Below the pieces are notes generated by a model, which ran no database searches, was not told the DNA's origin, and was given only the letters and a program-made list of their open reading frames with translations. Positions 1 through 29,556 of a stretch of DNA of 32,000 nucleotides are shown here, in pieces. A program made the translations under genes and the position numbers. Position 1 is the first letter of the stretch, and the number at the start of each line of letters is the position of its first letter. Source of the stretch: Methanothermobacter marburgensis str. Marburg (GTDB lineage Archaea > Methanobacteriota > Methanobacteria > Methanobacteriales > Methanothermobacteraceae); assembly GCF_000145295.1 (NCBI RefSeq), contig NC_014408.1, positions 1,020,001 to 1,052,000 on the forward strand. The letters are read 5' to 3'.

Positions 1-143
1 CCTCAAGCATATGTGAGGTGGAGGCCATGAAACACCATGAAAGGCCAGTATACGGTATACAGTTCCACCCTGAGGTACACCATACACAGGATGGTCACCG
101 GGTCTTCGAAAACTTCCATGAGGTCTGTGAAAACCTCCAATAG
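1..143 (+). CDS. guaAA: GMP synthase glutamine amidotransferase subunit A, 3' end only (5' part lies outside the window)
   Basis: Reading from position 3 gives [46 protein letters not shown], with the stop at 141..143. FHPE is the class-I amidotransferase His/Glu region. The subunit B gene follows directly. Confidence 0.75.
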
Positions 144-319
144 AAACACCTTCAAAAAAAACCTCTGAAAACTTCCATGAAGTCCGCAGAAACATCTAAT
201 ATAAAGGTTTCATAAGAGACACCCAACATCAGGCAAAGATTTCATGGAAAAGGCTGACCTTAACATTAAATAGGAGCCACACAAATAATTAAACCAATCA
301 TTTTTATCCGGTGATATTA

Positions 320-1246
320 ATGCTGAATCCATCTGATTTTATCCAGAAAGCTGTGGAAGAGATAAGAAATACCGTGGGTGATGAAAAGGCAATAATAGCA
401 CTCTCAGGAGGAGTTGACAGTTCAGTGGCCTCTGTACTTGCAGGTAAGGCCATAGGTGATAACCTGACAGCGGTCTTCGTTGACCATGGACTCCTCAGGG
501 AGGGCGAGGCAGAATACGTGAAGAAAACCTTCAGTGATAGGCTTAACTTCCGATACATTGATGCATCAGACGAGTTCCTGGGGGAACTTGAGGGTGTGAC
601 GGACCCTGAGGAGAAACGCAAGATAATCGGGAGGGTCTTCATTGAGGTCTTTGAACGCGTTGCAGAGGAGATAGGCGCGAGGTACCTGGTGCAGGGTACC
701 ATAGCCCCCGACTGGATCGAGAGTGAGGGTAAGATAAAATCCCACCACAACGTTGCACTCCCCCATGGACTGGTGCTTGAGATAGTGGAACCAATAAGGG
801 AACTGTACAAGGATGAGGTGCGGGAAATTGGCCTTGAACTCGGCCTTCCCCGTGAGATGATCCAGAGGCAGCCATTCCCTGGTCCTGGACTTGCGGTGAG
901 GATCGTGGGTGAGATAACCAGGGAGAAAATAGAGATATGCAGGAGGGCCAACGCCATCGTGGAGGAGGAGGTCCTTGAAAGCGGACTCCATGAGAGCCTC
1001 TGGCAGTACTTTGCTGTGCTCACAGACACCATGGTGACCGGTGTTAAGGGTGATGTGAGGGACTTCGGCTACCTCGTGGTCATAAGGATGGTTGAATCCC
1101 TTGATGCAATGACCGCCAGTGTCCCTGAACTCCCCTGGGACCTTGTGAAGAGGATATCAAAGCGTATAACCTCCGAGATACCTGAGGTTACACATGTGGC
1201 GCTTTCTGTGAGCGATAAGCCGCCAAGCACCATTGAATTTGCCTGA
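320..1246 (+). CDS. guaAB: GMP synthase subunit B (ATP pyrophosphatase, PP-loop)
   Basis: The ORF contains the PP-loop SGGVDSSV and a GMP synthase C-terminal dimerisation-type tail. The ORF track starts at GTG 311, but that GTG lies inside the GGTGAT Shine-Dalgarno (SD) sequence, 4 nt before ATG 320. Confidence 0.9.
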
Positions 1247-1505
1247 ATTAGATTTGAAATTTGAGACATCCTCCATTATTCTTTCCATTATCACCATCCC
1301 GGTGAGTTTCCCGCAAATACCATCTTTTTATCATCTATCATGTCTGAATGGGGAGTTCCATTGTCTTTTAAATGACACGCAGACGATCCCTTATCATCCA
1401 TCATTGGACGGTCATGAAACACTGCAGTCATGGATCTGAGATCCCTCTAAAAAGATGAATGATTATAATATAATCTAATATACATTTAAGAACATATTTC
1501 CACTC

Positions 1506-1961
1506 ATGAGTGAAAAAATACCCATATTCTCCGCTGCAGGTGGAAATGTTGAGATGGTTGAAAAGATCGAATTAACCGTTGAGGAGTGGCGGGAGATACT
1601 CGAACCCGAGGCCTTCCGTGTTGCAAGGTGCGGAGGCACAGAACCTCCATTCACAGGCGAATACCATGACTTCCATGGTGACGGTATATACCGCTGCGTA
1701 TGCTGCGGCACAGACCTTTTTGACTCAGAAACCAAATTTGATTCAGGCACAGGATGGCCAAGCTTCTATGACACCATATCAGAGTACAATGTGGAACTCA
1801 GGGAGGACCGGAGCCTTGGAATGGTGCGCTGTGAGGTCCTCTGTGCGAGGTGCGGCGCCCATCTTGGCCATGTATTCGATGACGGCCCCCTGCCAACAGG
1901 TAAGAGGTACTGTATGAACTCAGCGGCACTTAAATTCATCCCAAGGAGCCAGATACGCTGA
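1506..1961 (+). CDS. msrB: Peptide-methionine (R)-S-oxide reductase MsrB
   Basis: SelR/MsrB signatures are present: CVCCG and CARCG zinc CxxC pairs, GWPSF, and [21 protein letters not shown]...RYCMNS. Confidence 0.9.
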
Positions 1962-1991
1962 GGTTCAAATATAGAGGCCTGGAGGCATTTA

Positions 1992-2222
1992 ATGGCTGAG
2001 GACTTTGGAAGGTACTGGGTGGCCGGACTCATAATGGCCGTTGCCGGTGGTATGCTGAACACCCTCACCTACATCATAGGAACCTGGAGGCCGGAACAGT
2101 ATCCCGAGTGGCTACTGGGAATACTCACAGGTGCCATAGGTATCACCATGTTCATCCTGGTACCCTGGATCTACGGGAGGCTAGTGGAGTTCATATACAT
2201 GAGGTTCATAGCCAGGAGCTGA
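1992..2222 (+). CDS. Small two-TM membrane protein, function unknown
   Basis: 76-aa ORF with two hydrophobic helices (WVAGLIMAVAGGMLNTL and LLGILTGAIGITMFILVPW). I recognise no family. Confidence 0.45.
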   Translation: MAEDFGRYWVAGLIMAVAGGMLNTLTYIIGTWRPEQYPEWLLGILTGAIGITMFILVPWIYGRLVEFIYMRFIARS

Positions 2223-2377
2223 AGAAAAACCCTAGCTAAACACCCCTGAGTAAGGCCACCCCTCAAGAGATAGAAGAAACAGAGCTGAAGAAAAACCCTA
2301 GCTAAACACCCCTGAGTAAGGCCACCCCTCAAGAGATAGAAGAAACAGAGCTGAAGAAAAACCCTGGCTAGACACCC
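2216..2377. repeat. 66-bp tandem repeat, 2 identical copies plus a partial third, filling a convergent intergenic spacer
   Basis: 2221..2286 and 2287..2352 are identical. 2353..2377 matches with 2 mismatches. The stop of 1992..2222 and the stop of 2368..2745 both lie inside repeat units. Confidence 0.95.
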
Positions 2378-2745
2378 ATCATTGAAGCTGCCTCGTTGAG
2401 GAGCTCATTGGCCTCATTTATCATGAGACCCGCATGGACAAAGTGGTCATCATCACCATCATCATAGAACCTCATGAACTCCCTCAGAGAATCCCTGTAA
2501 ATCCCCGCCGCCCTGAGGATCGTGCTGTGCGCACCCTCCAGTCCAGGATCCGGGACTTCAACCCTTATATCATTGAATATTTCACTTAAGGAACGTTCGA
2601 TATCCATAAATTCCTCTTTGAGTTCCTCAGGATTCTTCCCGCCCTTCAGAAGGAGAAGGTTACCCCTGAATCGGTTCACATTGTACCCTATCCTCTGGAC
2701 ATGCCTCTGCATACTTTCAGTGTACATAGGACCTCCCCATTTCAA
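2368..2745 (-). CDS. Hypothetical acidic helical protein
   Basis: 125-aa ORF from TTG 2745. An alternative ATG at 2727 is preceded by GGAGGT. I recognise no family. Confidence 0.5.
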   Translation of the reverse strand: MKWGGPMYTESMQRHVQRIGYNVNRFRGNLLLLKGGKNPEELKEEFMDIERSLSEIFNDIRVEVPDPGLEGAHSTILRAAGIYRDSLREFMRFYDDGDDDHFVHAGLMINEANELLNEAASMMGV

Positions 2746-2951
2746 TCTAAGTGTCCTTCTGAAAAATAGATTTCCATTTATTCCCTATATTCAAGTGTAC
2801 CATGTTCCTGCAGTAGTATCATACGGATGACGTGTATGAGAAGGAGGATATGTTGTGCCGTTCAATCTTATCCCCATCATTTATTTTTTTTGATCCATAT
2901 GAGTGTTATGGCGATTATTGTGCCGAACCATACAGCTGCAGGCACTATAGG

Positions 2952-3197
2952 CTATAAGGCCTGATAAATCCATCTCATTTTTAGGTATGTGAGGAAGGCG
3001 AGTGTTCCTGCGAAAACCATCACTGGAATCATTATGTCTATGATTTCATCGTCTGGGTCGCTTAGAACCGCCATCTTATCTAGCAGCCTATTATGATATC
3101 TGTCTGTTCTTCTCTGATACTGCAGAAAACTTGTACATGTTCTATACAAGAATATAACGAAATAAAATACACCTGAAAAACCAACTCCATAACTCAC
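2952..3197 (-). CDS. Small two-TM membrane protein at the distal end of the cassette locus
   Basis: 81-aa ORF with a GTG start and two hydrophobic segments. It starts 3 nt after the stop (3201..3203) of an unlisted 37-codon ORF, MTNTKLHKILFIDENPAPGAEDADYTIGRVGGYNGHY (about 3201..3314). Confidence 0.4.
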   Translation of the reverse strand: MSYGVGFSGVFYFVIFLYRTCTSFLQYQRRTDRYHNRLLDKMAVLSDPDDEIIDIMIPVMVFAGTLAFLTYLKMRWIYQAL

Positions 3198-3327
3198 ATG
3201 TCAGTAATGGCCGTTATACCCGCCCACCCGTCCAATAGTATAGTCTGCGTCCTCTGCTCCGGGCGCGGGATTTTCATCTATAAAGAGTATCTTATGTAAC
3301 TTTGTATTTGTCATAAAATGATTCTTG

Positions 3328-3344
3328 TTTACATAATGATTCTT
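3328..3344. repeat. 17-nt direct repeat tttacataatgattctt, left copy (right copy at 11433..11449)
   Basis: Exact 17/17 match read from the sequence. A degenerate third copy, tcataaaatgattctt, lies at 3311..3326. Confidence 0.8.
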
Positions 3345-3586
3345 GAGGAGTTTATTTTGTCATGCTTGAAAATAAAATATGTGGAGGCCGAGAAGAAAAC
3401 TTTGATAGTCGCTTTTTTGGGAACCTGATATCCCCTTTTGGGTTTGTGTAGTGTGGTGTTTGATCCACTTTCAGGTTATCTGGGAATGGGGGATGAGATT
3501 GGAGGCTGCTATTTGGAGGCTAGAAATGCCCTGAGCCTCTTTATTTTGGTATTGGCTTGTTGGTTTGTTGTTGGGTTTAACGCTCC

Positions 3587-3865
3587 TCAATGATATAGCC
3601 GAGAAAGGAGAAGTACACCTACTAGGAGCATTATAACAAAAAGTGTTTCGATCACACCTTTTTCCTCGCCTCTGAACACCTTCTTCGACAGAAAATAGAT
3701 TAGCAAAAACATATTTCCCAGTAAAAGACACGTTAACAATATAATAGGTAGTTCAGGCCTAGTAGGCAGTAAAGCCAACCTACTACCCGTAAACAGTAAA
3801 ACCAACAAAATTGTAAAACACGATAACGACCCCAAAAAATAAAAAAGCTTAGATGTATGCTGCAT
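3587..3865 (-). CDS. Small 3-TM membrane protein, type-2 partner (immunity-like) of orphan cassette 3849..4256
   Basis: 92-aa ORF. Its ATG overlaps the last codons of the cassette and is preceded by GAGGTG with a 5-nt spacer. It shares NMFLLIY.L.K...E......G with 4387..4629. Confidence 0.6.
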   Translation of the reverse strand: MQHTSKLFYFLGSLSCFTILLVLLFTGSRLALLPTRPELPIILLTCLLLGNMFLLIYFLSKKVFRGEEKGVIETLFVIMLLVGVLLLSRLYH

Positions 3866-4256
3866 CCTCCCACCTCAAACTACCATCAGGATTCTTCGGT
3901 ATTTCAATATAGTGTATACAATGATCCTCACCAACATAACTTCTCAACTCATAACCATAAATCCAGGTACGATGAATCGAAATATACTTCCAATATTCTT
4001 GGGGAAGATAATGAGTCCGTATCCTTAAAATCAAATCACCTTCAGCCACTATCACACTTATAAAACCCAAAGGACCCATAACAGCAGTGACACCGGCAAC
4101 AGTTGCAATATCTAATATACCATGGAAAACATCCTCTAGAATGCATGTTTGGTGTTCTATGATGAATTTTTTGATATCGTCTGTGATGTTTAGGAGGCCT
4201 GTGTAGGCTATTATTGTTGCATATGCTGCCATGTTGAGTCCTATAAATCCCTCCAC
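3849..4256 (-). CDS. Orphan C-terminal cassette D (5'-truncated copy of the 837-aa gene tail; variable window type 2); possibly a silent cassette
   Basis: 135 aa from GTG 4256, with no SD. 4141..4244 is the constant 5' block, 4011..4139 the variable window and 3852..4010 the constant tail. 3843..4013 matches 5513..5683 with 1 mismatch. Confidence 0.55.
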   Translation of the reverse strand: MEGFIGLNMAAYATIIAYTGLLNITDDIKKFIIEHQTCILEDVFHGILDIATVAGVTAVMGPLGFISVIVAEGDLILRIRTHYLPQEYWKYISIHRTWIYGYELRSYVGEDHCIHYIEIPKNPDGSLRWEDAAYI

Positions 4257-4386
4257 AAGAGCATAATTGAGGATATCCTGGAATGTAAATCCACATAGAC
4301 TTCAACATTATCATGAGTTGTGATATTTTTTATAGGTTTTTTCTAAGATTTTCCAGTTTTTTTGGGCGTGGGGGGCTGCTTTTCTT

Positions 4387-4629
4387 TTATGCAAGGCCAA
4401 AGAAGCCTATAATTACAAGCAAGCCTCCAAGTGCTCTGACAGTTTCATTTTCAGTTTTTCCCAACTCATCCTTGCCTAATAGGTAAATTAAGAGAAACAT
4501 GTTCACTATGTAAATGGAATAGACAATTAATTTGCTGATAATATAGGGGAAACGGAGACTAACCACAACCAATGCAGCAGTAAAATAAGAAAGGAAATAA
4601 CTAAAATAAAAAATGTACTTTACCATCAT
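4387..4629 (-). CDS. Small 3-TM membrane protein, type-2 partner (immunity-like) of orphan cassette 4643..5146
   Basis: 80-aa ORF. AGGAGG lies 5 nt before the ATGATG start, which is 13 nt after the cassette stop. It is a paralogue of 3587..3865. Confidence 0.65.
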   Translation of the reverse strand: MMVKYIFYFSYFLSYFTAALVVVSLRFPYIISKLIVYSIYIVNMFLLIYLLGKDELGKTENETVRALGGLLVIIGFFGLA

Positions 4630-4642
4630 ATCATCCTCCTAA

Positions 4643-5146
4643 TCAGATATACACTGCTTCATCCCATCTTAAAGTACCATCTGGGTTCTTTGGGATTTCA
4701 ATGTAGTGTATGCAATGGTCTTCGCCAACATAAATTTTAAGTTCATAACCATGCCGCCAAGTTCTATGGTAAGAAACATATTTCCAATATTCAGTTGGAA
4801 GATAATTCGTTCTTACATTCACAATTAAATCACCTTCTGCTAATAGTAGAGAAGCAATCGAAAAAATACCACTTGCCAAGGTGACACCTTCACTACTAAG
4901 CTCTTTTAAACTCCATATAAAAAGAATCCCATCTATAATGTCCCCTCCAATGCATGTTTGGTGTTCTATGATGAATTTTTTGATATCGTCTGTGATGTTT
5001 AGGAGGCCTGTGTAGGCTATTATTGTTGCATATGCTGCCATGTTGAGTCCTATGAGGCTGGCCCTACATAATCGAAAAAGAGGGTTTAGGATGGAAAGGT
5101 ACATGGAGGTTACAAAGCCCAATATAAGCCTTCTTAGTACTATCAT
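4643..5146 (-). CDS. Orphan C-terminal cassette C (variable window type 2) with a decayed, frameshifted 5' remnant
   Basis: 167-aa ORF. The constant block is 4950..5053, the variable window 4805..4948 (48 codons) and the constant tail 4646..4804. Upstream, 5100..5180 is homologous to 5985..6065 but carries a 1-nt insertion, so the first ~10 codons are out of the ancestral frame. Confidence 0.5.
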   Translation of the reverse strand: MIVLRRLILGFVTSMYLSILNPLFRLCRASLIGLNMAAYATIIAYTGLLNITDDIKKFIIEHQTCIGGDIIDGILFIWSLKELSSEGVTLASGIFSIASLLLAEGDLIVNVRTNYLPTEYWKYVSYHRTWRHGYELKIYVGEDHCIHYIEIPKNPDGTLRWDEAVYI

Positions 5147-5161
5147 CTAAACCTTCAAGGT

Positions 5162-5407
5162 TTACAGTGCTGTTGCCATCCAGGAAAAGGACGAGCCTAC
5201 TACAAAGGTTATGGCCATTAACCATCGTATTTCATCCTCTCTTTCCTTCAATTTGAATTGGAGCCAGAATAGAAGAGAAAAAATGAACAAGCCTAAAAGG
5301 TCTGCTATTGGAATCAAACCATTAAAATGTTTAATTCCAATGGAAAATAAAATAATATCGAGACAAAGAAGGGAATAAAGTATATCGAGCAAAGATTCAT
5401 AATCCAA
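5162..5407 (-). CDS. Small 3-TM membrane protein, type-1 partner (immunity-like)
   Basis: 81-aa ORF with a TTG start preceded by GGAGGTG (7-nt spacer). It shares LDYES and L(K/E)E(K/R)E.EIRW.M....VG with 8512..8787. Its last ~7 codons run into a remnant of cassette sequence. Confidence 0.6.
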   Translation of the reverse strand: MDYESLLDILYSLLCLDIILFSIGIKHFNGLIPIADLLGLFIFSLLFWLQFKLKEREDEIRWLMAITFVVGSSFSWMATAL

Positions 5408-5519
5408 GAAAAGACACCTCCTATATCATCCACTTAGACTACCCCATTAGGGTTCGTTTGAGAATTTTAGCCCCATATAGTTGCCGCGGATCGTAAAATA
5501 CGCCAAAAACTGAAAAAGC

Positions 5520-6167
5520 TTAGATGTATACTGCATCCTCCCACCTCAAACTACCATCAGGATTCTTCGGTATTTCAATATAGTGTATACAATGATCCTC
5601 ACCAACATAACTTCTCAACTCATAACCATAAATCCAGGTACGATGAATCGAAATATACTTCCAATATTCTTGGGGAAGATAATGATCTCTAAATGTAAGT
5701 ATGCCATCACCTATCCGCATACACCATCCAATTGGTTGAAATATTTCACCACCATACCTTACTAACACATATGCCAAAACCTGGATCAAACAGTGAGCAG
5801 TATCTTCTGAGATGTATGTTTGGTGTTCTATGATGAATTTTTTGATATCGTCTGTGATGTTTAGGAGGCCTGTGTAGGCTATTATTGTTGCATATGCTGC
5901 CATGTTGAGTCCTATAAATCCCTCCACAAGAGCATAATTGAGGATATCAACAAAAGCCATCGGACCTTCCAGGGCAATGTACATGGAGATTACAAGGCCA
6001 ATATAAGCCTTCTTAATACTATCATCTAAACCTTCAAGGTTTACTGTGCCATTACCATCCAAGAGCGAATCTAACTTTTCAGAGAATATTATAGTCTGGC
6101 CAAGTTCCCGAGCCCATTCTGTCTGTTGGTGGTAGTAGCAGTATGCTCCCATGAAAGCATAGATCAT
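5520..6167 (-). CDS. Orphan C-terminal cassette B (variable window type 1); the reading frame and homology continue upstream to 6300 without a start codon
   Basis: 215 aa from ATG 6167. The constant block is 5812..5915, the variable window 5682..5810 and the tail 5523..5681. The whole 5520..6300 stretch aligns to 8768..9551. Confidence 0.55.
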   Translation of the reverse strand: MIYAFMGAYCYYHQQTEWARELGQTIIFSEKLDSLLDGNGTVNLEGLDDSIKKAYIGLVISMYIALEGPMAFVDILNYALVEGFIGLNMAAYATIIAYTGLLNITDDIKKFIIEHQTYISEDTAHCLIQVLAYVLVRYGGEIFQPIGWCMRIGDGILTFRDHYLPQEYWKYISIHRTWIYGYELRSYVGEDHCIHYIEIPKNPDGSLRWEDAVYI

Positions 6168-6300
6168 GTCCCTTACTATCCCTGTTACATGGTCTATGAT
6201 GAGGTATCTTCCCTGCCCGTCACTGATAAGCGTGTAATTCTCGCTTTCGAGGATGTTTAGTGACCCGCCGTTGAGGAGTGTTAGGCCTATTCCTGTTGTG
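5520..6300 (-). repeat. 781-bp duplicate of the 3' end of the 837-aa gene (partner copy 8768..9551)
   Basis: Read by eye, 5916..6300 is almost identical to 9164..9551. The copies diverge in the variable window and homology ends abruptly at 6300/9551. Confidence 0.9.
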
Positions 6301-6327
6301 TGGAGGTTTTGATCCTGGGATTTGGGT

Positions 6328-7548
6328 TTATGGTTGATTTTTTTGGATGGTGAGTTCTTTCAGGGCTTTTTTGGCTTTTTTGTATTCTGGGTCTATTTTC
6401 AGGGATTTTTCGTAGCATTTTAGTGCTTCTTTGTGTTTGCCGAGTTTTTGTAGTGTTTTTCCTTGCATGTACCATAGTGTTTTGTTTTGCGGGTTTAGTT
6501 TGAGGGCTTTCTTGTAGCATTTCAGGGATTCCTCTGGTTCTTTGAGGTCTTCTAGGATTATGCCTTTCCATTTCCATGCATCAGCGAATTCTGGGTTTAT
6601 TTCAAGGGCTTTTTGAAAGCATTCCAGCGCATCCTCATATTTTCCAAGTTCTTCGAGGACTAGTCCTTTGTTGTTCCATGTTTTGTCGTCTTCTGGATCT
6701 ATTTCCAGGGCTTTTTCATAGCATTCCAGTGCCTCCTCATATCTCCCAAGTTCACTGAGGACTACTCCTTTATTGTTCCATGCTTCTGCAAGTTTGGGGT
6801 TTATCTGTAATGCTTTTTCATAGCATTCTAGTGACTCATCATATCTCCCAAGTTCATTGAAAACTAGTCCTTTGTTGTTCCAAGCTTTATCATCTTGTGG
6901 ATTTAATTGGAGAACTTTGTCATAACATTTTAATGCTTCTTCATATATCTTAAGGTTATGTAATGTTATTCCTTTAGTTCCCCAAGCTCTATAATTTTTT
7001 GGATTTAGCTCTATGGCTTTTTCGAAACATTTTAGTGCCTTTTTGTATTTTTTAAGGTAAATTAGAACGGAGCCTTTATTGTACCATGCATCTGCAAGTT
7101 TGGGGTTTATCTGTAATGCTTTTTCATAGCATTCTAGTGCCTCATCATATCTCCCAAGTTCTTTGAGGACTAGTGCTTTATTGTTCCATGCTCCTGCATA
7201 CTTTGGATTTATTTTTAGTGCTTTTTCATAGCATTCTAGTGCCTCATCATATCTCCCAAGTTCTTTGAGGACTAGTCCTTTGTTGTTCCATGCTTCTGCA
7301 AGTTTTGGATTGTTTTTGAGGATTTTTTCATAGCATTCTAAGGCTTTCTCTGGTCTTTTGAGTTTTAGTAGTGTTATTGCATTGTAGTGGAGGATTTCTG
7401 GGTTGTTTGGTCTTGCTTTGAGGGCTTTCCTGAATTCTTTGAGGGCTTCTTTGTATTTTCCCTGTTTTAGGCTTGATCGGCCCCCAGCAAGGTGCCATCC
7501 AGCCTTTCCCTCGGCTATCCAATCCTTTATTTTCTTAAGGGGGTTCAT
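6328..7548 (-). CDS. Tetratricopeptide (TPR) repeat protein, ~11 tandem 34-aa repeats; translationally coupled partner of orphan cassette E
   Basis: The repeated consensus is A(W)xNKGxxLxxLGRYDEALECYEKALxINP. Adjacent 102-bp DNA units are nearly identical (for example 7118..7190 vs 7220..7292). Its ATG overlaps the stop of 7545..8495 (ATGA). Confidence 0.85.
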   Translation of the reverse strand: MNPLKKIKDWIAEGKAGWHLAGGRSSLKQGKYKEALKEFRKALKARPNNPEILHYNAITLLKLKRPEKALECYEKILKNNPKLAEAWNNKGLVLKELGRYDEALECYEKALKINPKYAGAWNNKALVLKELGRYDEALECYEKALQINPKLADAWYNKGSVLIYLKKYKKALKCFEKAIELNPKNYRAWGTKGITLHNLKIYEEALKCYDKVLQLNPQDDKAWNNKGLVFNELGRYDESLECYEKALQINPKLAEAWNNKGVVLSELGRYEEALECYEKALEIDPEDDKTWNNKGLVLEELGKYEDALECFQKALEINPEFADAWKWKGIILEDLKEPEESLKCYKKALKLNPQNKTLWYMQGKTLQKLGKHKEALKCYEKSLKIDPEYKKAKKALKELTIQKNQP

Positions 7549-8495
7549 CCTCCAGCCTCTCTCAACTTCTTTTCTAGGTAGTTTTTGAATCCTAGTATGC
7601 AGGCTTCTATTGCTTCACGATTCTCATAGGCCAATAGGCTTCCAATAGCCATCCCAGTGCCTATTATAGTGCCTCCATGTTTTATGGCGCCCACAACATC
7701 CCCATCCTTTAAAGCCTCCTTGAACAGATCCCATTCATCCATCATGAGTTTACCTAAATTATTTATAGCCCTTCCTATATCGTCGGGATCGCCACCAACA
7801 CCACCACTGCTAATCACCCTTAGAGTATCTACGGCTTCTCTATACTCATTTATCGCTTGACTCCATTCGTCAGACTGTCTTGATAGTATTTCAAGATAGT
7901 TTTGTATTGGTTGTGTGTCTCCTGTTAGTAGTGTGTAGGCGATGAATGTTGGCAGACCAGCGGGTGAGAGTAACATCATGGCATCTTCGATGTATGGGAG
8001 CCACTCAGGATGTTCGATGAGGATATAAGCGACTATTGCAACAACTATTCCTATGCCAGCTGTCGCCGGCGCTGACAAGGCTCCTGCTTCGAGGATGGCG
8101 ACTTCAGCTCCTCCTTCGAAGCCGACGACTTCAGCTCCTGAAACACCAGCAAATCCAATGAACTTCCACAAACCGGTCTCATTCAGTAGTTCTTTTGCGA
8201 GGTTGGCTGCCCATTCTGTCTGCAGGTGGCTGAAACAATATGCCCCCATAACATTCTTAAAGATATTGACATCCCTCACTATCCCTGTTGCAGTGTCGAT
8301 GATCAGGTAGTCATTATCATAGTTTATTATGGTGTAGTTCCCAGCTTTTGTAATATTTAGTTTTTCTCCGTTCAGGAGCCTGTATGCTATGCTTGTGATC
8401 GCAGCACCTTCCATGATATCCCCTATATTGTCGAGGCTTCCATTGTATGGGAATAGGCGTTGCATTGAACTCTGAGGGGTTTGATGTCCCGACAA
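7545..8495 (-). CDS. Orphan cassette E: junction motif homologous to the 837-aa protein, followed by an unrelated glycine-zipper-rich hydrophobic C-terminal domain
   Basis: 316-aa ORF (TTG 8495, or ATG 8465; no SD). Residues ~36-96 (8208..8390) align to 9362..9541 of the full-length gene: LLNG..LNI...NYT.I....YLIID..TGIVRD....MGAYC..H.QTEWA. Downstream it is unrelated to the other cassettes (GFAGVSGAEVVGFEGGAEV..., GGTIIGTGMAIGSLLA). Confidence 0.55.
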   Translation of the reverse strand: MSGHQTPQSSMQRLFPYNGSLDNIGDIMEGAAITSIAYRLLNGEKLNITKAGNYTIINYDNDYLIIDTATGIVRDVNIFKNVMGAYCFSHLQTEWAANLAKELLNETGLWKFIGFAGVSGAEVVGFEGGAEVAILEAGALSAPATAGIGIVVAIVAYILIEHPEWLPYIEDAMMLLSPAGLPTFIAYTLLTGDTQPIQNYLEILSRQSDEWSQAINEYREAVDTLRVISSGGVGGDPDDIGRAINNLGKLMMDEWDLFKEALKDGDVVGAIKHGGTIIGTGMAIGSLLAYENREAIEACILGFKNYLEKKLREAGG

Positions 8496-8511
8496 TAATT
8501 AAATAGCCCTG

Positions 8512-8787
8512 TTATACCCCTGGAGATGCAATTAAACCCACTATAAGGAGCATTACCATCATCCATCTTATTTCATACTCTTTTTCCTTCAACTCGTAGT
8601 AGAGCCAGCATAAAAGGAGAAGAGTGAACAAGCCTAAAGGGGCTGCTATTAGGGACAAAACATCACAATGATACTTAAGCGCAAGAATACATAGGAACAT
8701 AACTATGCAGATAAGAGGATAAGCCCTCTTATACCAAGATTCATAATCCAATAAGATCCCCTCCACTTTAGATATATACTGCTTCAT
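8512..8787 (-). CDS. Small 3-TM membrane protein, type-1 partner (immunity-like) of the full-length 837-aa protein
   Basis: 91-aa ORF from an ATG inside the upstream gene. A more likely start is TTG 8751, preceded by GGAGGGG (6-nt spacer), which matches the start context of paralogue 5162..5407. Confidence 0.6.
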   Translation of the reverse strand: MKQYISKVEGILLDYESWYKRAYPLICIVMFLCILALKYHCDVLSLIAAPLGLFTLLLLCWLYYELKEKEYEIRWMMVMLLIVGLIASPGV

Positions 8788-9551
8788 CCCACCTCAAACT
8801 ACCATCAGGATTCTTCGGTATTTCAATATAGTGTATACAATGATCCTCACCAACATAACATCTCAACTCATAACCATCGTACCAGGAACGATGATACGAT
8901 ATATACTTCCAATACTCTTTTGGAAGATAATAATCTCTAAAGCTCAATATTTTATCACCAAACCACATACAAAACCCAATTGACCCTAATATCGCCCCAG
9001 CACCTCCTTTTGACACGTATCCAAAAACAGTAAGTAAAATATCTATAATGTCTTTTGGAATGTATGTTTGATGTTCTATGATAAATTCTTTGATATCGTC
9101 TGTGATGTTTAGGAGGCCTGTGTAGGCTATTATTGTTGCATATGCTGCCATGTTGAGTCCTATAAGTCCCTGACCCACAAGAGCATAATTGAGGATATCA
9201 ACGAAAGCCATTGGACCTTCCAGGGCAATGTACATGGAGATTACAAGGCCAATATAGGCCTTCTTGATACTATCATCTAAACCTTCAAGGTTTACTGTGC
9301 CATTACCATCCAAGAGCGAATCTAACTTTTCAGAGAATATTATGGCTTGGCCAAGTTCCCGGGCCCATTCTGTCTGTTGGTGGTAGTAGCAGTATGCTCC
9401 CATGAAAGCATAGATCATGTCCCTTACTATCCCTGTTACATGGTCTATGATGAGGTATCTTCCCTGCCCGTCACTGATAAGCGTGTAATTCTCGCTTTCG
9501 AGGATGTTTAGTGACCCGCCGTTGAGGAGTGTTAGGCCTATTCCTGTTGTG
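8768..9551 (-). repeat. 784-bp master copy of the segment duplicated at 5520..6300
   Basis: See the entry for 5520..6300. The two copies differ in length by one codon. Confidence 0.9.
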
Positions 9552-11281
9552 GGCGCGCTTGTGGGGTCTGATCCTGGGAAGAGGGCCTCCATCACATAGT
9601 ATTCTATTGGATTTATAGCTGATGTTCTCGCATAATTGAATGCTTTAATGTTTTCAGGTGTGCCTTCTGCTTTCACGGCCATGTTGTGGTTGCATTCGAG
9701 GCTTATCCATGTTCCGAGGGCGTGGTCTCCTGCTGAGACCATCACTGGCATGGTCCTGGTCCATGTTACATTATAGCGCGTGGCTGCTTCTTCTGCGATG
9801 AGATCGTGGAGGTATATTACTTCAAGGCCTGTTAGGAATGTTCCGTAGGCTGCCTTTAATGGTCCGGGTTCGTATGTCCTGTTTAGCCACTTTTGTAATG
9901 TCTGGTTTGTTATCTTCCCTGTGGCGAGGGTGTAGGTTATGATGGCGTCGTAGTTGCTAGCCTCCCAGATGAGAGTGTCGTTTATTATGATATTGGGTCC
10001 TGTTTCTCCTGGTGGGTGTATGTATTGGCCGTTTGTGTAGAGTAGGAGGAGTGTTCTTGTTGATTTGTTCCCTGGGAATGTTATATTGGCTATTGTCACC
10101 TTTTCCTCGCCGGGATACTCCACACTGACCTGTAAAGGGTCTATGCACTTGTTATAGTTTGTGAGTATGAATGTCTTTTCTGCCTGGGTTAAATTGAAGT
10201 TGTTGAGATATTCATTCACTTGAGGTTCTGCTCCGAGTTTTGTGTAAATTTCTATGAGTCTGTTCAGGCCAGCTATGACTTGCCAGACTATTTCTCTTTG
10301 ACTCTGGCTGTTAGCCTGGTAGAATGGGTTAGTGACCTCGGCTAGTTTGTATGCTATGCCATCCTCCACAAGGAATATTGTTTCATTGAATAGGCCCGAA
10401 GCTATAGCCCCTATACTAATCCATTTAACCGTGTCATTGAGCGGAATTTTAAATGTTAAATTTAGGGGCTTCCCAGAGGATGTTGCCGTGGAATTAACAT
10501 GGACCGTTGCAAGCATAACCTCCAATGTCATAGTCTTCGTGTCTGTTATGCCATAGGCTTGGATTGTTAGGGTTGCTTTGTAGGTTCCTGGTTTGTAGGC
10601 GTGTACTGGATTCTTCTGGGTGCTTGTGCTTTGGTCTCCGAAGTCCCATTTGTAGTATTGTATTGTCCCTGTACTTTTATCCTGGAACTGGACATTATAG
10701 CCTTGTATTGTGTAGGTGTAGTCTGCCCTTGGCCTTGTCAGGGTTCCGGCCTTACCTGTAACATATTTTACTGTTACATGGTTTGGTAGTCTTCCTGTGC
10801 TGTTGTAGAAGTTTATTATCCTTGCATTGGCATATATTAGGCTTTCTGGGCGGATTTGTCCGATGGCTGTGCTGGCATAATTCGGCGACCTCCCATAGGA
10901 TTCCATGAAAGCCTTAACATTCTTTGCCACCTGCAGGTATCCTGCTTTTTGGAGTGTTCCTGTTCCTGTTCCACTTGGACTGGGCGGGGAGGCCATACTA
11001 TTGAATGACAAGCCAACTCTCCTAGCCTGATCGAGGTTTATGATGGTTGTGGATGAGGCGTAGAGGTAGTCGTCTGCCGACACATTCTTACCGTTAATCA
11101 CAACCTGTGATGGTATTTTTTCATGTTGTGCGGTGTAATTTCCGATCAGCTTTGAAGCGTCACAAATCTCATTATAGGATAAACTCACAGCTGAAGAACT
11201 GCCCAGAAAACAGAAAAAGGACAGGATCGCCAGAAAAAACAACAACCTCCTCACAGCCACCACCATAATATGATAACACAT
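8768..11281 (-). CDS. Full-length secreted wall-binding protein: signal peptide, 2 pseudomurein-binding-like repeats, PKD domain, ~300-aa unknown region, junction motif, variable C-terminal module (type 1)
   Basis: 837-aa ORF. The signal-like N-terminus is (MCYHI)MVVAVRRLLFFLAILSFFCFLGSSSA. The PKD signature is WDFGDQSTSTQKNPVHAYKPGTYKATLTI. The segments KIPSQVVINGKNVSADDYLY and GRLPNHVTV resemble pseudomurein-binding repeats (from memory). About 15 N-x-S/T sequons are present. The variable window is 8930..9058. Confidence 0.85.
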   Translation of the reverse strand: MCYHIMVVAVRRLLFFLAILSFFCFLGSSSAVSLSYNEICDASKLIGNYTAQHEKIPSQVVINGKNVSADDYLYASSTTIINLDQARRVGLSFNSMASPPSPSGTGTGTLQKAGYLQVAKNVKAFMESYGRSPNYASTAIGQIRPESLIYANARIINFYNSTGRLPNHVTVKYVTGKAGTLTRPRADYTYTIQGYNVQFQDKSTGTIQYYKWDFGDQSTSTQKNPVHAYKPGTYKATLTIQAYGITDTKTMTLEVMLATVHVNSTATSSGKPLNLTFKIPLNDTVKWISIGAIASGLFNETIFLVEDGIAYKLAEVTNPFYQANSQSQREIVWQVIAGLNRLIEIYTKLGAEPQVNEYLNNFNLTQAEKTFILTNYNKCIDPLQVSVEYPGEEKVTIANITFPGNKSTRTLLLLYTNGQYIHPPGETGPNIIINDTLIWEASNYDAIITYTLATGKITNQTLQKWLNRTYEPGPLKAAYGTFLTGLEVIYLHDLIAEEAATRYNVTWTRTMPVMVSAGDHALGTWISLECNHNMAVKAEGTPENIKAFNYARTSAINPIEYYVMEALFPGSDPTSAPTTGIGLTLLNGGSLNILESENYTLISDGQGRYLIIDHVTGIVRDMIYAFMGAYCYYHQQTEWARELGQAIIFSEKLDSLLDGNGTVNLEGLDDSIKKAYIGLVISMYIALEGPMAFVDILNYALVGQGLIGLNMAAYATIIAYTGLLNITDDIKEFIIEHQTYIPKDIIDILLTVFGYVSKGGAGAILGSIGFCMWFGDKILSFRDYYLPKEYWKYISYHRSWYDGYELRCYVGEDHCIHYIEIPKNPDGSLRWDEAVYI

Positions 11282-11316
11282 TATAGTATAAAAAGATTAC
11301 TATCTCTTTTAGGGGC

Positions 11317-11332
11317 GAAAAATATAAAAGGT
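11317..11332 (-). promoter_or_regulatory. TATA-box-like element upstream of the 837-aa gene
   Basis: The minus strand reads ccTTTTATATTTTTc, centred ~43 nt upstream of ATG 11281. This is pattern resemblance to archaeal TATA boxes only. Confidence 0.3.
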
Positions 11333-11432
11333 GGGATTTAAGACAAGAGCATGAATCCCATCATTACAAGCTTAAACAGGAAAAATAGGCACTTACCATC
11401 CCCCCCAGATGGGCAAAGAGAAACCTCATTTC

Positions 11433-11449
11433 TTTACATAATGATTCTT
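11433..11449. repeat. 17-nt direct repeat tttacataatgattctt, right copy (left copy at 3328..3344)
   Basis: Exact match read from the sequence, ~150 nt upstream of the 837-aa gene. Confidence 0.8.
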
Positions 11450-11824
11450 CTAAGGGAATACAGAATTTTTCCTGCTCCCCCATTCTTAGGTGTTCCTACA
11501 ATATGCAATGGAGAAGTATGAAGTAGGAAGGAAAACACAGGGTAAAAAGATATTATTGGTGAAACCGTGAAAAACACCTATACAAAAATATACTATAAAC
11601 GATATTGTACATGAGATCAGAAGAAAAAACAAAAACAGGGAAATACTCATTATCTTTAACGAAGTACAGCAGATGTCAAAAAGCACAATGCGAATTTTCT
11701 TGATATAAAGAATAAGTTTCAGTGAGGTGTCATAAAAACAATAAACCCAGTCCCTCCAATGGGATATGATGACGGGTCAGGTGTACCATAAAAACAATAA
11801 ATATCCAGAAACAGAGCTTTAACA

Positions 11825-12988
11825 ATGATACGGTCAAAGTACGCCTTCCTCAAGAGGCTCACCAGGGACCTCAAAATGAGGTCCGTGGAGGTGGGAGAGG
11901 AGTTTGAGGGGGCCACACCCCCATCGGTATTCATAGGGAGCTGGAACTACCCCAGGGTCTACGCTGGACCCATGATAGCACCCATCCAGGGTGAGGTCGA
12001 GATATTTGACTCCCCTGAGAGATGGATACCCGAGAGTAAAACACAGGAGGAAATCATAGACTACCGCCTCAACCTCATAAGGGGCAAGCAGCTAGTGGGA
12101 GTCAGGGACCTTGATAACCATCTCGTGGAGAAGCTCCAGGAAATATCCCTCTCATCAGGGGCCATTGAAAGCGAGGCCCAGTTCAGGAGAAAACCAAGAG
12201 GCCTGTTTTTCAGTGAGGAGCAGACACCCCACGGCCCCAGCGCAGTCCTTGAAAACTTTGAGATAGAGAACGTCAAATGGGACCGTGAACTTGAAAGGGC
12301 CCACTACGACACCGACCTCAGGGCAGATGAGGCAATAGTGGAACTCCACAGAAAGGGAACCCCATTCTCTGCCATCCAGAAGGCCCTCTCGGTGGGTGCA
12401 CTTGGTGATGCCAGGAAAAGGAGGCTTGTCCCCACAAGGTGGTCAATAACAGCCTGCGACAGCACCCTGGCGGACCACTTCCACAGGAGGGTTCTTGAAT
12501 ATGATATCCTGGACATCTACAGGGTCCATGAATTTGAAAGCCTCAAAAACAGATACCTCATACTCCTCACACCCTCAGAGTGGCAGTATGAATGGATGGA
12601 GGCCTTTATAAAGCGTGACGGGCGTGCAATGATATTCTCAGACCATGAAACACTGAAGGGTAAGAGGGAGTACTCAAGGGTTGGTGGCTGCTACTACAGC
12701 GCCAGGATGGCTGTCCTTGAGGCCCTTGACAGGGAAGAGAAACAGGCAGGTGCAATCATACTCAGGGAGGCCTACCCGGGCTATGTGCCCCTGGGTGTCT
12801 TCAACGTCAGGGAGAACGTTAAAAACGCCATGAATGTAAGGCCACATGAGTTCAACGGCCTTAAAGAGGCCCTTGAATTCATGGACAGCAAACTTAAACT
12901 TGGACTTGATGCATTCAGAAGGAGGAGTAACCTGCTGCGGGACATCAGTTCTTCAAGGCAGACAACCCTGGACTCCTTCTTCAGGTGA
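11825..12988 (+). CDS. nreA: Nre-family archaeal DNA repair protein (DUF650/DUF651-like) with a C-terminal PCNA-interacting PIP box
   Basis: 387 aa. [20 protein letters not shown] resembles the Nre N-terminal region (from memory). The C-terminal QTTLDSFF (12959..12982) fits the PIP consensus Qxx[LIM]xx[FY][FY]. Confidence 0.6.
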
Positions 12989-20060: not shown

Positions 20061-21293
20061 TTAGCCGAACATCACGCCGGTTTCCTGCTTGTATTCCTCT
20101 TCCTTCTCAACACCCATTATCTTATCAACGGCGTCCATGAAGTCATTCATTGTGACCTCATCACGTTCCTCCCTTATGGCGAACATACCTGCCTCTGTAC
20201 ATATCGCCTTGAGGTCCGCGCCGGATGCACCGTCTGTGATCCTTGCAAGGAGTTCAATGTCAACTTCCTCTGCAAGGGCCATTCCAGATGTGTGTATCTT
20301 GAGGATCTCCCTCCTGCCGTCCTCATTTGGCAGTGGAACCTCAATGAACCTGTCAAATCTTCCAGGGCGGAGAAGTGCAGGATCCAGGATGTCAGGCCTG
20401 TTGGTTGCAGCGACTATACCAACATTACCCCTGGATTCAAAGCCATCAAGCTCTGCAAGGAGCTGCATCAGTGTCCTCTGAACCTCCCTGTCCCCGCTTG
20501 TTGAACTCTTAAGTCTCTTGGCTGCCACAGCGTCAATTTCATCTATGAATATTATGCTGGGGGCCTTCTCCTTGGCCAGCTCAAAGACTCCCCTCACCAG
20601 CCTTGCACCTTCACCTATGTACTTTCTGACGAACTCTGATGCAACTATCTTTATGAAGGTGGCGTTGGTTTCATGTGCAACGGCCTTTGCAAGGAGTGTT
20701 TTACCTGTACCCGGGGGTCCGTAGAGCAGTACACCCTTTGGTGGTTCTATACCTATCTTCTCAAATAGTTCAGGTTTTTTAAGTGGTAATTCCACTGTCT
20801 CCTTGACCTCACGTACCTGTTCCTCGAGGCCACCTATCTGCTCATAGGAGACGTCCGGTTTTTCTTCAACTTCCATACCCGTTACCACGGGGTCCTTCTC
20901 TGATGGAAGCACATCCACTATGCTGAATGTCTGCTGGTTGAGTGCAACCCTGGCACCTGGCTCCAGCTGCTTCTTATCAATGAATCTTGAATAGTTTATT
21001 ACGAAGTGAGGGCCTGTGCTGCTCTTAACTGCGACCCTGTGATCATCAAGAACCTCTGTGATGGTGGCTATGACCAGTGGCGGGGTTCTGAATCTTTCAA
21101 TCTCACCACGGAGAGATTTAACCTCCCTGTCAAGCCTTGTCTTCTCATTTTCAATTAAAAGTTTATCCTTCTCAAGCTTTCTGATCTTCCACATCAGATT
21201 CCTTTTTGTCTTTGAATTCTCCTCTTTAAGCATTCTAATTTCTTTTTTGAGGTCCTCAATCTTTTTTAATACATTCTGGGAGTTATTTTCCAT
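20061..21293 (-). CDS. pan: Proteasome-activating nucleotidase (AAA+ ATPase)
   Basis: An N-terminal coiled coil, an OB region, Walker A GPPGTGKT and Walker B IIFIDEID are present, in 410 aa. Confidence 0.9.
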
Positions 21294-21345
21294 GATTTTA
21301 GAACACTCCTATTTAAATTTTGTTGTATACTATCTTGTTTCTAGT

Positions 21346-21359
21346 AATATTTAAATATT
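21346..21359. promoter_or_regulatory. Perfect 14-nt palindromic TATA-like element between the divergent pan and mbf1 genes
   Basis: aatatttaaatatt equals its own reverse complement. It lies ~53 nt from the pan ATG and ~41 nt from the mbf1 ATG. Confidence 0.35.
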
Positions 21360-21399
21360 GGGGTGGGATAAAACTAGTATAAAATAAAAAGGGATCTTC

Positions 21400-21873
21400 A
21401 TGAGATGCGAGATTTGCGGCAAAAAGATTGTTGGAAAACCTGTGAAGACCAAAATCGACAGTTCAGTGATGGATGTATGCAGAGAATGCTCTAAGTTCGG
21501 TAAAATCATCAGGGAACCTTCCAGACCAAGACCCACCAAGGCGGGTGTTAGGAGAGCCCCTAAGAGGTCAAGGAGGCCAATGGAAACCCTATATGAGGTT
21601 GTTGAGGGTTACGGTGAGATCATAAGGGCTGAGAGAGAGTCCCGGGGATGGTCAAGGGAGGATCTCGCAGAGAGAATCAATGAGAAGGTCTCAGTCATAA
21701 ACAGGATTGAATCTGAGAGAATGGAACCCGACATCAAACTTGCAAGGAAACTCGAGAAGCTCCTTAAAATAAAGATCCTGGAGAAATTCGAGGCCGGTGA
21801 AGAGGAAAGGATTGAGGTTGGAGGGTTCCGCGGAGCAACCATAGGTGATATAGCAAGAATAAAAAGGGGTTGA
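21400..21873 (+). CDS. mbf1: Archaeal multiprotein bridging factor 1 (zinc ribbon + Xre-type HTH)
   Basis: The zinc ribbon is CEICGKK...CRECSKFG. The C-terminal HTH is GWSREDLAERINEKVSVINRIESERMEPDIKLARKLEKLL. Confidence 0.8.
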   Translation: MRCEICGKKIVGKPVKTKIDSSVMDVCRECSKFGKIIREPSRPRPTKAGVRRAPKRSRRPMETLYEVVEGYGEIIRAERESRGWSREDLAERINEKVSVINRIESERMEPDIKLARKLEKLLKIKILEKFEAGEEERIEVGGFRGATIGDIARIKRG

Positions 21874-21893
21874 ATGATTCCCCCTGTGGACAC

Positions 21894-22256
21894 TCACCTC
21901 TTTTTATATGAATAATAACCCTTGAGGACCTTCAGAGTGCCGAACATTTCCCTGAGGTCCTCATATTCATCATATTCGCTGCTCACAACAATTATGTGGG
22001 CCGGTGGATGTATCCTCCTCACAGCCATTATGGTCTCTGTATCACCCTCCTCAACCTCAACTGCGGCTGCAACCCTGGATCTGGTCCTGAGGTTACCTCC
22101 AAGTATGGATGCTGCCATTTTATCTGCGATTTCATGTTTCATTATTCGGGGCCTGCCCCTTACCCTCAGGCCAGCATGTCTTTCAAGATCCGCAAGGGCA
22201 TTCAGGATCTTATCTCTGCTATCAGCCCTTAATATTATTAGAGACACATTAACCAC
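21894..22256 (-). CDS. Hypothetical protein
   Basis: 120-aa ORF with a GTG start. I recognise no family. Confidence 0.45.
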   Translation of the reverse strand: MVNVSLIILRADSRDKILNALADLERHAGLRVRGRPRIMKHEIADKMAASILGGNLRTRSRVAAAVEVEEGDTETIMAVRRIHPPAHIIVVSSEYDEYEDLREMFGTLKVLKGYYSYKKR

Positions 22257-29122: not shown

Positions 29123-29133
29123 CCGACCCTTGC

Positions 29134-29556
29134 CTAGTGTTCATGCTCCACTTTCTGTTCGGTTGATGTGCTTGTGAGCCTTACGTGTTCAACACCCTTG
29201 AGCCTCATCATCTTCTCTGTGAGTTCACGGATCTTTGAAACGTCACCCTTGACAACGATCACCTCAAGGCAGTGCTTCTCTGTCATGTGCACATGCATAA
29301 CCGCATTGATGTATTCACGGTAGTCGTGCTGGATATCCGCAAGATCCTCCATGACCCCGGTGTAGTGGTGGTCATAGATAACTGCAATTATACCGATTCG
29401 CTCTCCTTCCATTTCATTCATCCACTGGTACCTGACAATGTAGTCCTTCAGGGCATCCCTTATACCCTTGGACCTTGACTGGTAACCACGATCCCTTAAA
29501 ACTTCATCAAACTCATTCAGGAGCTTTTTTGGTAGAGACATGCTTATTCTCATCAT
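29134..29556 (-). CDS. nikR: Nickel-responsive transcriptional regulator NikR
   Basis: The ribbon-helix-helix N-terminus is MRISMSLPKKLLNEFDEVL. The C-terminal metal-binding domain has HVHMTEKHC and a His-rich tail, EHEH. Confidence 0.85.
   Translation of the reverse strand: MMRISMSLPKKLLNEFDEVLRDRGYQSRSKGIRDALKDYIVRYQWMNEMEGERIGIIAVIYDHHYTGVMEDLADIQHDYREYINAVMHVHMTEKHCLEVIVVKGDVSKIRELTEKMMRLKGVEHVRLTSTSTEQKVEHEH

Follow-up and report, generated by a model that had tools for sequence, protein, structure and literature searches.

The window analysed here is a stretch of 32,000 nucleotides (nt) from the genome of Methanothermobacter marburgensis str. Marburg (NC_014408.1, positions 1,020,001 to 1,052,000). 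Homologues agree with this host: the best hit, at 97%, is from M. marburgensis, and a protein of str. Marburg is identical to orphan C of the array described below. Between nre and msrB (SelR) it holds an island with a GC content (guanine plus cytosine) of 0.36-0.45, against about 0.50 in the flanks, and the ORF list (open reading frames) places ten minus-strand genes, all co-oriented, inside this low-GC stretch. One of them, gene A, encodes a putative wall-binding surface protein; the others are four orphan copies of its C-terminal part, B to E, and five partner genes, pA to pE, one behind each copy. We interpret this array as a polymorphic toxin/immunity locus of pseudomurein-walled methanogens that would target membranes, a reading to which we give a probability of about 0.55.

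Gene content of the island

An earlier note on this DNA, made from its letters, had placed the ORFs of the array on the minus strand at coordinates with which the ORF list agrees. From A downstream, the copies and their partners are the following.

8768..11281, minus strand: gene A, 837 amino acids (aa), with predicted signal peptide, pseudomurein-binding repeats (PMBR), PKD domain, body, junction and A-type tip
8512..8787, minus strand: pA, small membrane protein, likely start TTG 8751 (79 aa) behind GGAGGGG
7545..8495, minus strand: orphan B, about 95 aa of pre-junction homology, junction and B-type tip
6328..7548, minus strand: pB, 406 aa, 11 tetratricopeptide repeats (TPR; Pfam), without signal peptide; its start overlaps the stop of B as ATGA
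5520..6299, minus strand: orphan C (ORF 5520..6167), hairpin variant v2, in frame with A to 6299
5162..5407, minus strand: pC, 81 aa, 3 hydrophobic segments, TTG start behind TAGGAGGTG
4643..5185, minus strand: orphan D (ORF 4643..5146), hairpin variant v4
4387..4629, minus strand: pD, 80 aa, 3 hydrophobic segments, ATG start behind TAGGAGGA
3849..4277, minus strand: orphan E (ORF 3849..4256), GTG start inside the conserved N-block, hairpin variant v5
3587..3865, minus strand: pE, 92 aa, 3 strongly hydrophobic segments, start codon uncertain, distantly related to pD (E=1e-6)

The description of A as an 837-aa protein with a signal peptide, pseudomurein-binding repeats and a PKD domain, given in the earlier note, is borne out. 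The N-terminus carries a hydrophobic signal-like segment (approximately aa 1-31), which suggests that the protein is exported, and Pfam recognizes three PMBR stretches (E=5e-27) and a PKD domain at aa 192-254 (E=1.5e-12). Homologues of gene A begin at ATG 11266. The remainder of the protein up to the tip is made up of two elements.

9401..10522, minus strand: body (pre-tip) domain, about 390 aa (aa 254-627), without a relative in Pfam, NCBIfam or PDB by sequence and profile searches
9362..9460, minus strand: junction, YLIIDxxTGIVRD...MGAYCYYHQQTE followed by WA, with the breakpoint after E638 (window 9368)

The body is marked by the motifs MKAAYGTFL, HDxxAD, YNVTWxRT, ECDHxMG, TGIVRD and GAYC, and the junction motif TGIVRD...GAYCxxHQQTE is conserved throughout the family described below; at the DNA level we described the junction by the pattern AARGCNGCNTAYGGNWCNTTY, 63 N, AAYGTNNNNTGG. 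A role of the body as a catalytic Cys/His peptidase that releases the tip, suggested by the ECDH motif, was dropped after the Cys and His proved not to be invariant. Double-glycine cleavage by a C39 peptidase at the G-[AGS] step before YC of the junction is pure speculation, and a C39 gene adjoins the island in only two of the loci compared, L001 and L005.

Tips switch at the junction

Full-length homologues of A are collinear up to ...MGAYCYYHQQTE, after which their tips switch. The homologues P0002 and P0005 have identical bodies and diverge after QQTE into an A-type and a B-type tip, respectively. P0001 carries the tip found in the window, P0005 and P0006 carry B-type tips, and P0002 and P0004 share another A-type variant on bodies that are 89% and 71% identical to that of A.

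The same switch is seen between strains at a single chromosomal site. Locus L006 (CP113501.1) occupies the same nre..msrB position as the array of the window, and its flanks are 96-98% identical to those of the window. The two sequences are 97.9% identical as far as the E638 codon (position 9368) and, from 3890 on, again 96% identical; the stretch between these two points holds, in L006, a B-type tip, a TPR protein of 421 aa and other orphans with partners. The comparison suggested in the earlier note, whether pairs of tip and partner differ between strains at the msrB..nre site, is thereby answered in the affirmative.

Recombinants between the main gene and the orphans also occur. In P0003 the frameshifted 5' block of cassette D is fused to a full-length body, and in P0059 and P0061 the N-terminal part of D is fused to other hairpins. 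The orphans and their partners are not simply decaying, since they are 98-100% conserved between strains that carry them at different chromosomal sites.

Two kinds of tip

All four orphans had been described as homologous to the C-terminal part of A, and BLASTP agrees; the homology of C, previously traced to 6300, runs to 6299. The match between A and B (33% identity, E=4e-18) is limited to A564-734, so B combines the shared junction with a different tip, in which the hydrophobic segments are rich in glycine, the middle is helical and the C-terminus has a segment resembling a glycine zipper. The other three orphans are of the A type: C is 82% identical to A over A622-837 (E=3e-124), D 57% (E=4e-61) and E 66% (E=4e-58). 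The A-type tip is built of three parts, given here for A.

9065..9166, minus strand: N-block, 34 aa (LIGLNMAAYATIIAYTGLLNITDDIKEFIIEHQT; LIGLNMAAYATIIAYTGLLNITDDIKxFIIEHQT), DNA about 100% identical in A, C, D and E
8930..9064, minus strand: variable hydrophobic hairpin, about 45 aa (aa 740-784), DNA identity between copies 20-67%
8771..8929, minus strand: conserved beta-rich tail, 53 aa (YLPxEYWKY...HYIEIPKNPDGxLRW), DNA identity between copies 73-100%

The differences among A, C, D and E lie mainly in the internal segment of about 45 aa and do not extend over the whole tip. A codon-level comparison finds the DNA of A and C about 100% identical from aa 588 to 735. The 53-aa tail is also found on distant family members, and the A-type tip together with its tail is also carried by 1600-aa proteins.

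No Shine-Dalgarno sequence precedes any of the orphan tips. The upstream homology of C, to 6299, contains neither a start codon nor a Shine-Dalgarno sequence, and the upstream homology of D (LDGNSTVNLEGLDDS...) is frameshifted.

Two traces of rearrangement were observed within the array. At 5115-5185 the 3' end of pC runs into the 5' homology block of D (LDGNSTVNLEGLDDS, read there in a different frame), so cassette-junction DNA encodes the last residues of pC, the scar of a cassette insertion. Approximately 25 nt past the stop of C (5480-5519) resemble the start of pE after E (3825-3850), and the tail DNA of C is 100% identical to that of E, which together suggests a past exchange that brought part of the 5' end of pE behind C.

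Partner genes and their pairing with tips

The earlier note had a partner behind each copy, as we also find, and had pA overlapping A by 20 nt; the latter does not hold, because the most likely start of pA is TTG 8751, given GGAGGGG upstream of it and the alignment with the start of pC (MDYES), and this start leaves a 17-nt gap. As to the kinds of partner, the 406-aa TPR protein stands with its 11 repeats, and the small partners pA, pC, pD and pE, described there as proteins with three transmembrane (TM) segments, are 79-92 aa long with 2-3 strongly hydrophobic segments. Translation of the partners appears well provided for, by a strong Shine-Dalgarno sequence in pA, pC and pD and by the ATGA overlap in pB.

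Tips and partners are paired by type. Among the A-type tips, which pair with membrane proteins of 78-92 aa, hairpin identity tracks partner identity (Mantel r=0.63, exact p=0.016, n=7 A-type hairpin variants): hairpins v1, v2, v3 and v7 go with pA/pC-like partners, and v4, v5 and v6 go with pD, pE and 85-aa partners. The v4/pD pair is unchanged in L001, in L003 and in an orphan-only array of Methanothermobacter sp. MT-2 (L013), where pD is 100% conserved, and the pair of v6 and the 85-aa partner recurs in independent loci. The B-type tip is followed by a TPR protein in six loci (the window, L002, L004, L006, L008 and L009); in the last, from Methanobacterium petrolearium, the gene of a beta-helix protein of 2759 aa that bears a B-like tip overlaps a TPR gene of 261 codons' product length (261 aa). 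Other tip types (L004, L006, L010, L011) are followed by multi-TM proteins of 121 aa, 173/135 aa and 124 aa, and behind an orphan tip with weak likeness to transglutaminases lies an extracytoplasmic protein of 231 aa with an N-terminal anchor. Some of this co-variation could be explained by linkage alone; the pairing of B-type tips with TPR proteins across genera appears harder to dismiss in this way.

The pB gene is made of 102-nt repeats in 7.5-11 copies. The length of the TPR partner differs between near-identical strains, from 406 aa in the window to 355 aa in L003 (13769-14836), and its versions in other loci range over 218-437 aa.

Two further cassettes deserve mention. In L004 (14250-15729) an orphan tip of a new type, 181 aa long, is followed by two multi-TM paralogues as partners (173 and 135 aa). 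The 16 C-terminal residues of this tip (GIKPPHIPTESEVIGG) recur at the end of the first partner, a repetition that points to duplicated DNA at the cassette border. At 15364-16654 of L008 lies a second, degenerate and more distant system, with ORFs of 90 aa and 184 aa followed by a 91-aa membrane protein, in which body-like and junction-like motifs can be discerned (AAYGTFLT; YMFIDLASDG...GGACYHNTHPT).

The wider family

How far does this architecture extend? A profile of A254-837 run against 1.84 billion cluster representatives retrieved a family of 247, among them 85 with E<1e-30, and the majority of the profile matches stop at position ~399, which is the junction. The body sits C-terminally on proteins of up to 2414 aa with NosD/beta-helix, Big_5, CHB_HEX_C or PMBR domains, and the named members come from Methanothermobacter, Methanobacterium alcaliphilum, M. 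petrolearium and Methanobrevibacter. The carriers of the body are thus the 'adhesin-like proteins' of Methanobacteriaceae: we observe large secreted beta-helix/Big/PMBR proteins with C-terminal hydrophobic segments, the features by which the adhesin-like proteins of Methanobacteriales with a C-terminal membrane anchor (Leahy et al. 2010) are defined. This label accounts for neither the junction nor the orphans nor the partners.

The 94 post-junction tails fall into ~24 BLAST clusters. A hydrophobic 19-mer is present in 75 of them, and GxxxG motifs are about four times as dense in tails as in bodies (1.16 against 0.28 per 100 aa). Ten representative distant tails compared with Pfam gave a single match, to Transglut_core, at E=0.003 and below the Pfam cut-off. 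Searches of PDB with the body, the A tip, the B tip and two distant tails returned nothing relevant, the profile matches being to the PKD domain from full-length rows, and a scan of genome contigs with the junction alignment gave no confirmed relative. Pfam finds no CdiB, FHA/haemagglutinin repeats or VENN in A or the neighbouring ORFs, and the junction motif differs as well; it finds no RHS/YD repeats in A or in six distant family members, and no colicin pore-forming or Cai/Cei-type immunity domains in the tips or partners.

Comparison with known systems

Several characterized systems resemble parts of this array, by what we regard as analogy rather than homology. The closest delivery concept is that of WapA/WapI of Bacillus subtilis, which likewise combines a Sec signal, three wall-binding repeats, a long body, a strain-variable tip and an immunity-type gene downstream, displayed on a thick wall without an outer membrane. 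WapA has CWB2 repeats, RHS/YD repeats, a PxxxxDPxGL boundary and tRNase tips, whereas the methanogen protein has PMBR repeats, a new body, the TGIVRD...GAYCxxHQQTE boundary and hydrophobic tips without a known fold. A second likeness, that of a hydrophobic or glycine-rich helical effector with an immunity protein of ~80-110 aa and 2-4 TM segments, is to the pore-forming colicins (Cai/Cei/ImmE1), CdiA-CT(EC93)/CdiI and TspA/TsaI of Staphylococcus aureus. Colicin specificity lies in a hydrophobic helical hairpin recognized in the membrane, and TsaI genes are multicopy. No sequence relationship to these proteins was detected here, and the A-type tip adds a beta-rich 53-aa tail without a known counterpart.

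Arrays of orphan cdiA-CT/cdiI genes were reportedly treated by Poole et al. in 2011. In the orphan cdiA-CT/cdiI and rhs-CT/rhsI arrays (Zhang et al. 2012, PMC3482391) a full-length gene and its partner are likewise followed by start-less fragments with partners, which retain pre-junction homology and can displace the expressed tip by recombination. The present array differs in having an archaeal host, in lacking CdiB, FHA, VENN and RHS, and in the internal hairpin of about 45 aa, between flanks of 100% identity, by which alone the A-type copies differ.

Within the archaea, Makarova et al. are said to have predicted polymorphic toxin systems in 2019; that paper lay outside our search of the full-text literature, in which no description of the present family turned up. 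Archaeal polymorphic toxin systems, including those of methanogens, had been predicted in silico earlier (PMC3482391). By their description these are set apart from the present family, being of the RHS/YD, DUF4157-protease or barnase type and of bacterial-looking origin. In the VARTIG system of Thermococcales a secreted protein has a hypervariable C-terminus made by recombination and variable genes downstream, and its authors likened it to polymorphic toxin systems (PMC8416519). VARTIG differs in that an Ig domain is the variable part, in the taxon and the domains involved, and in lacking an array of junction and orphan tips with one-to-one partners. In IdsD/IdsE of Proteus mirabilis specificity lies in short variable regions within predicted TM segments of two co-encoded proteins. 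IdsD is delivered by a type VI secretion system, and the pair is not known to have such orphan arrays or a wall-binding delivery protein. Silent-cassette variation of the pilE/pilS type is not matched, since here the exposed body is conserved and every cassette has a partner gene. Apparently new are the pre-tip domain, the junction, the tips, the partners, the pseudomurein-binding presentation module and the tip-internal variable unit.

Setting and mobility of the island

The limits of the island were drawn from homology to copies in other loci.

11282..11330, minus strand: upstream edge and putative promoter region, with two TATA-like boxes (cttttatatt, ctttttatactata)
3371..3586, minus strand: downstream island edge; homology to copies at other sites (L001, L005) stops at ~3371
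11825..12988, plus strand: nre, flank gene
1506..1961, plus strand: msrB (SelR), flank gene

The upstream limit of homology (blastn; L001, L002, L004, L005) is at window 11328, at the TATA-like box, and GC climbs again past the downstream edge at ~3371. Related islands lie in three chromosomal contexts: nre..msrB (window, L003, L006), polB..DHODH (L002, L004) and a Peptidase_C39 cluster (L001, L005). From this distribution the low-GC unit of ~8 kb appears to be mobile between chromosomal sites. No integrase, capsid, terminase or other viral gene was found in or adjoining the island, and a near-identity search of a plasmid collection with the flank (window 1-3000 only) gave no match.

In L001 (6368-9078) and L005 (3856-5040) a stand-alone Peptidase_C39 gene, a 151-aa gene and several small ORFs lie directly upstream of the island, in a cluster that resembles those for bacteriocin processing. 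Orphan-only arrays without a full-length gene occur in L013 (5377-8914; Methanothermobacter sp. MT-2) and also in L012. In the MT-2 array the A-type tails are truncated; it also has a TPR gene, a partner resembling pA/pC, a C-type tip and a D-type tip whose pD is identical, and its site, near MatE and msrA, is a fourth chromosomal context.

Interpretation

What could be the function of such an array? The in-silico hallmarks of a polymorphic toxin locus all appear to be present: a presentation protein, a sharp junction, unrelated tips, type-specific partners and recombining orphans. The earlier note had proposed this reading, and its architectural side holds in the junction switching, the recombinants, the pairing and the breadth of the family, whereas the swap of a whole C-terminus does not apply to the A-type copies. 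Architecture, breakpoints, recombinants, tip/partner pairing, translation signals and family breadth are seen in the sequences themselves; export, release, membrane attack and protection we infer.

We hypothesize that A is exported via Sec by means of its signal peptide and that its three PMBRs and PKD domain would hold it on the pseudomurein wall, its own or that of a neighbour. The C-terminal tip after the junction TGIVRD...MGAYCxxHQQTE would be the effector, whose moderately hydrophobic or glycine-rich helices may enter the cytoplasmic membrane of neighbouring Methanobacteriaceae and act by pore formation or depolarisation, while the downstream gene would shield the producer. An effector that inserts into the membrane and is neutralised there is the most economical proposal, given tips that are hydrophobic or rich in glycine and partners that for the most part are small polytopic membrane proteins. 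The A-type partner, such a small polytopic protein, would recognize the hairpin of about 45 aa within the membrane, and the TPR partner of the B type would bind its hydrophobic or helical tip as an immunity protein or a chaperone, much as TPR chaperones bind the translocators of type III secretion systems. The orphans would be spare tips that have neither promoter nor Shine-Dalgarno sequence but keep homology on their 5' side; through homologous recombination, either at the junction or within the 100%-identical N-block, a new tip could enter the expressed gene together with its partner. Orphan partners with ribosome-binding sites of their own would meanwhile provide standing immunity against the tips of neighbours.

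On a broader scale, these proteins may form a family of their own, of Sec-exported, wall-displayed polymorphic membrane toxins in Methanothermobacter, Methanobacterium and Methanobrevibacter, apparently of non-bacterial origin, defined by the domain of ~390 aa and the junction, with dozens of new membrane-active tip families, each countered by a small intramembrane or TPR immunity protein, and with a 45-aa specificity hairpin in the A type that recombination would exchange between 100%-identical flanks; we would put this wider proposal at somewhat less than even odds.

A number of points weigh against the toxin/immunity reading. No tip or partner matches a known toxin or immunity family in Pfam, NCBIfam, PADLOC or PDB sequences, and the first three give no match at all for the tips and small partners of the array. 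The earlier note likewise recognized none of these sequences as such a family. AlphaFold2 models of the A tip (14-row alignment; pLDDT, the per-residue confidence score, 43.5) and the B tip (4 rows; 42.3) are too poor for fold comparison. Hydrophobic tips equally fit a membrane anchor or a recognition module, and the most hydrophobic segment of B (Kyte-Doolittle 2.3) is expected to be a stop-transfer anchor. A TPR partner could meet only a cytoplasmic segment of the tip, since it has no signal peptide. A short internal hairpin as the variable unit of the A type departs from the classical exchange of a whole C-terminal domain; moreover, the conserved tail lies between this hairpin and the partner gene, and recombination there could uncouple the two. 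Co-variation of tip and partner can also reflect simple linkage, and release of the tip, by a protease or at a cleavage site, is a supposition. Finally, the C-terminal TM segments of Sec-exported archaeal surface proteins and of adhesin-like proteins of Methanobacteriales are conventionally read as anchors (PMC2812497), and another treatment that takes the same TM-anchor view of adhesin-like proteins mentions neither toxin nor immunity (PMC11532034).

Several of these points would suit a non-lethal system of self or kin recognition, or of adhesion identity, in which the tip anchors the wall protein in the membrane of its producer, the hairpin or the cytoplasmic tail of the B type fits the cognate partner like a key its lock, after the example of IdsD/IdsE, strains with matching pairs cooperate or aggregate, and the cassettes diversify identity. 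Hydrophobic tips and polytopic membrane partners that co-vary are what it predicts, and it accommodates well a variation confined to a hydrophobic segment of about 45 aa between conserved blocks, as in an intramembrane hairpin; it also agrees with the failure of Pfam to find an enzymatic toxin domain and with the adhesin-like character of distant family members. We nevertheless consider it unlikely, because partner genes are kept in orphan-only arrays without a main gene, which the hoarding of immunity would lead one to expect more, because unrelated tips with unrelated partners (TPR, multi-TM, extracytoplasmic) resemble an arsenal rather than a single interface, and because one tip is weakly transglutaminase-like. 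Still somewhat less probable is a variable membrane anchor of an adhesin-like wall protein, exchanged by cassettes in the manner of phase or antigenic variation, with the partners as anchoring or assembly helpers or chaperones and the orphans either as silent reserves or as duplicates in decay. In keeping with this idea are the classic role of TPR proteins as chaperones for hydrophobic partners, the hydrophobic segment in 75 of the 94 tails, the frameshift in the upstream part of D and the lack of a Shine-Dalgarno sequence before the orphans, as well as the literature that reads the C-terminal TM domains of adhesin-like proteins as anchors (PMC2812497; PMC11532034). It leaves without obvious reason, however, the ~24 unrelated types with type-specific partners and the junction-precise switching between 97%-identical strains, as well as the orphan-only arrays of partners, and in known antigenic variation it is the exposed part that varies, whereas the exposed body is here the conserved part.

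A very improbable explanation is that a mobile element, such as a provirus or an integrative element, left the island behind or carries it as cargo, with the PMBR protein serving for binding to a receptor or the wall and the small membrane proteins acting in superinfection exclusion or as holin-like factors. PMBR repeats are also found in prophage pseudomurein endoisopeptidases, the island is a discrete low-GC unit of ~8 kb present at three chromosomal sites, and a Peptidase_C39 cluster adjoins it in L001 and L005. Yet the island and its immediate neighbourhood are free of integrase, capsid, terminase and other viral genes, the window 1-3000 flank, the sole part compared with plasmids, is without a match, and neither the repeated logic of tip and partner nor the junction-precise switching is explained.

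Under the toxin/immunity reading the array would be of interest in several respects. Antagonism between archaea is almost unexplored experimentally, and most of the polymorphic toxins predicted for archaea are RHS or nuclease systems of bacterial type. The locus offers a compact, testable system in a genetically tractable and industrially used genus of methanogens. The new domain and junction allow families of tips and partners to be mined across Methanobacteriaceae, including gut and rumen Methanobrevibacter. If the reading is true, some of the 'adhesin-like proteins' of gut and rumen methanogens would serve as weapons and not for adhesion, and new membrane-active peptides that target methanogens, with their specific inhibitors, might be found, which is relevant to methane mitigation. 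Should the array serve recognition instead, it would be a rare case of molecular self-identity in archaea.

Further features of the window

No tRNA or Rfam family was found across the whole window. An intergenic tandem repeat of 66 bp lies at 2216-2377 (2.5 copies, 97% match), and its copy number is strain-dependent, the counterpart in L006 aligning at three staggered offsets. Just outside the island are an 81-aa ORF with one hydrophobic segment (2952-3197) and a 125-aa ORF (2368-2745); both are kept at the same site in L003 and L006 and belong to the flank and not to the array. Additional dips in GC content, against a level of about 0.50, occur at 21001-22000 (0.42) and 29001-30000 (0.44).

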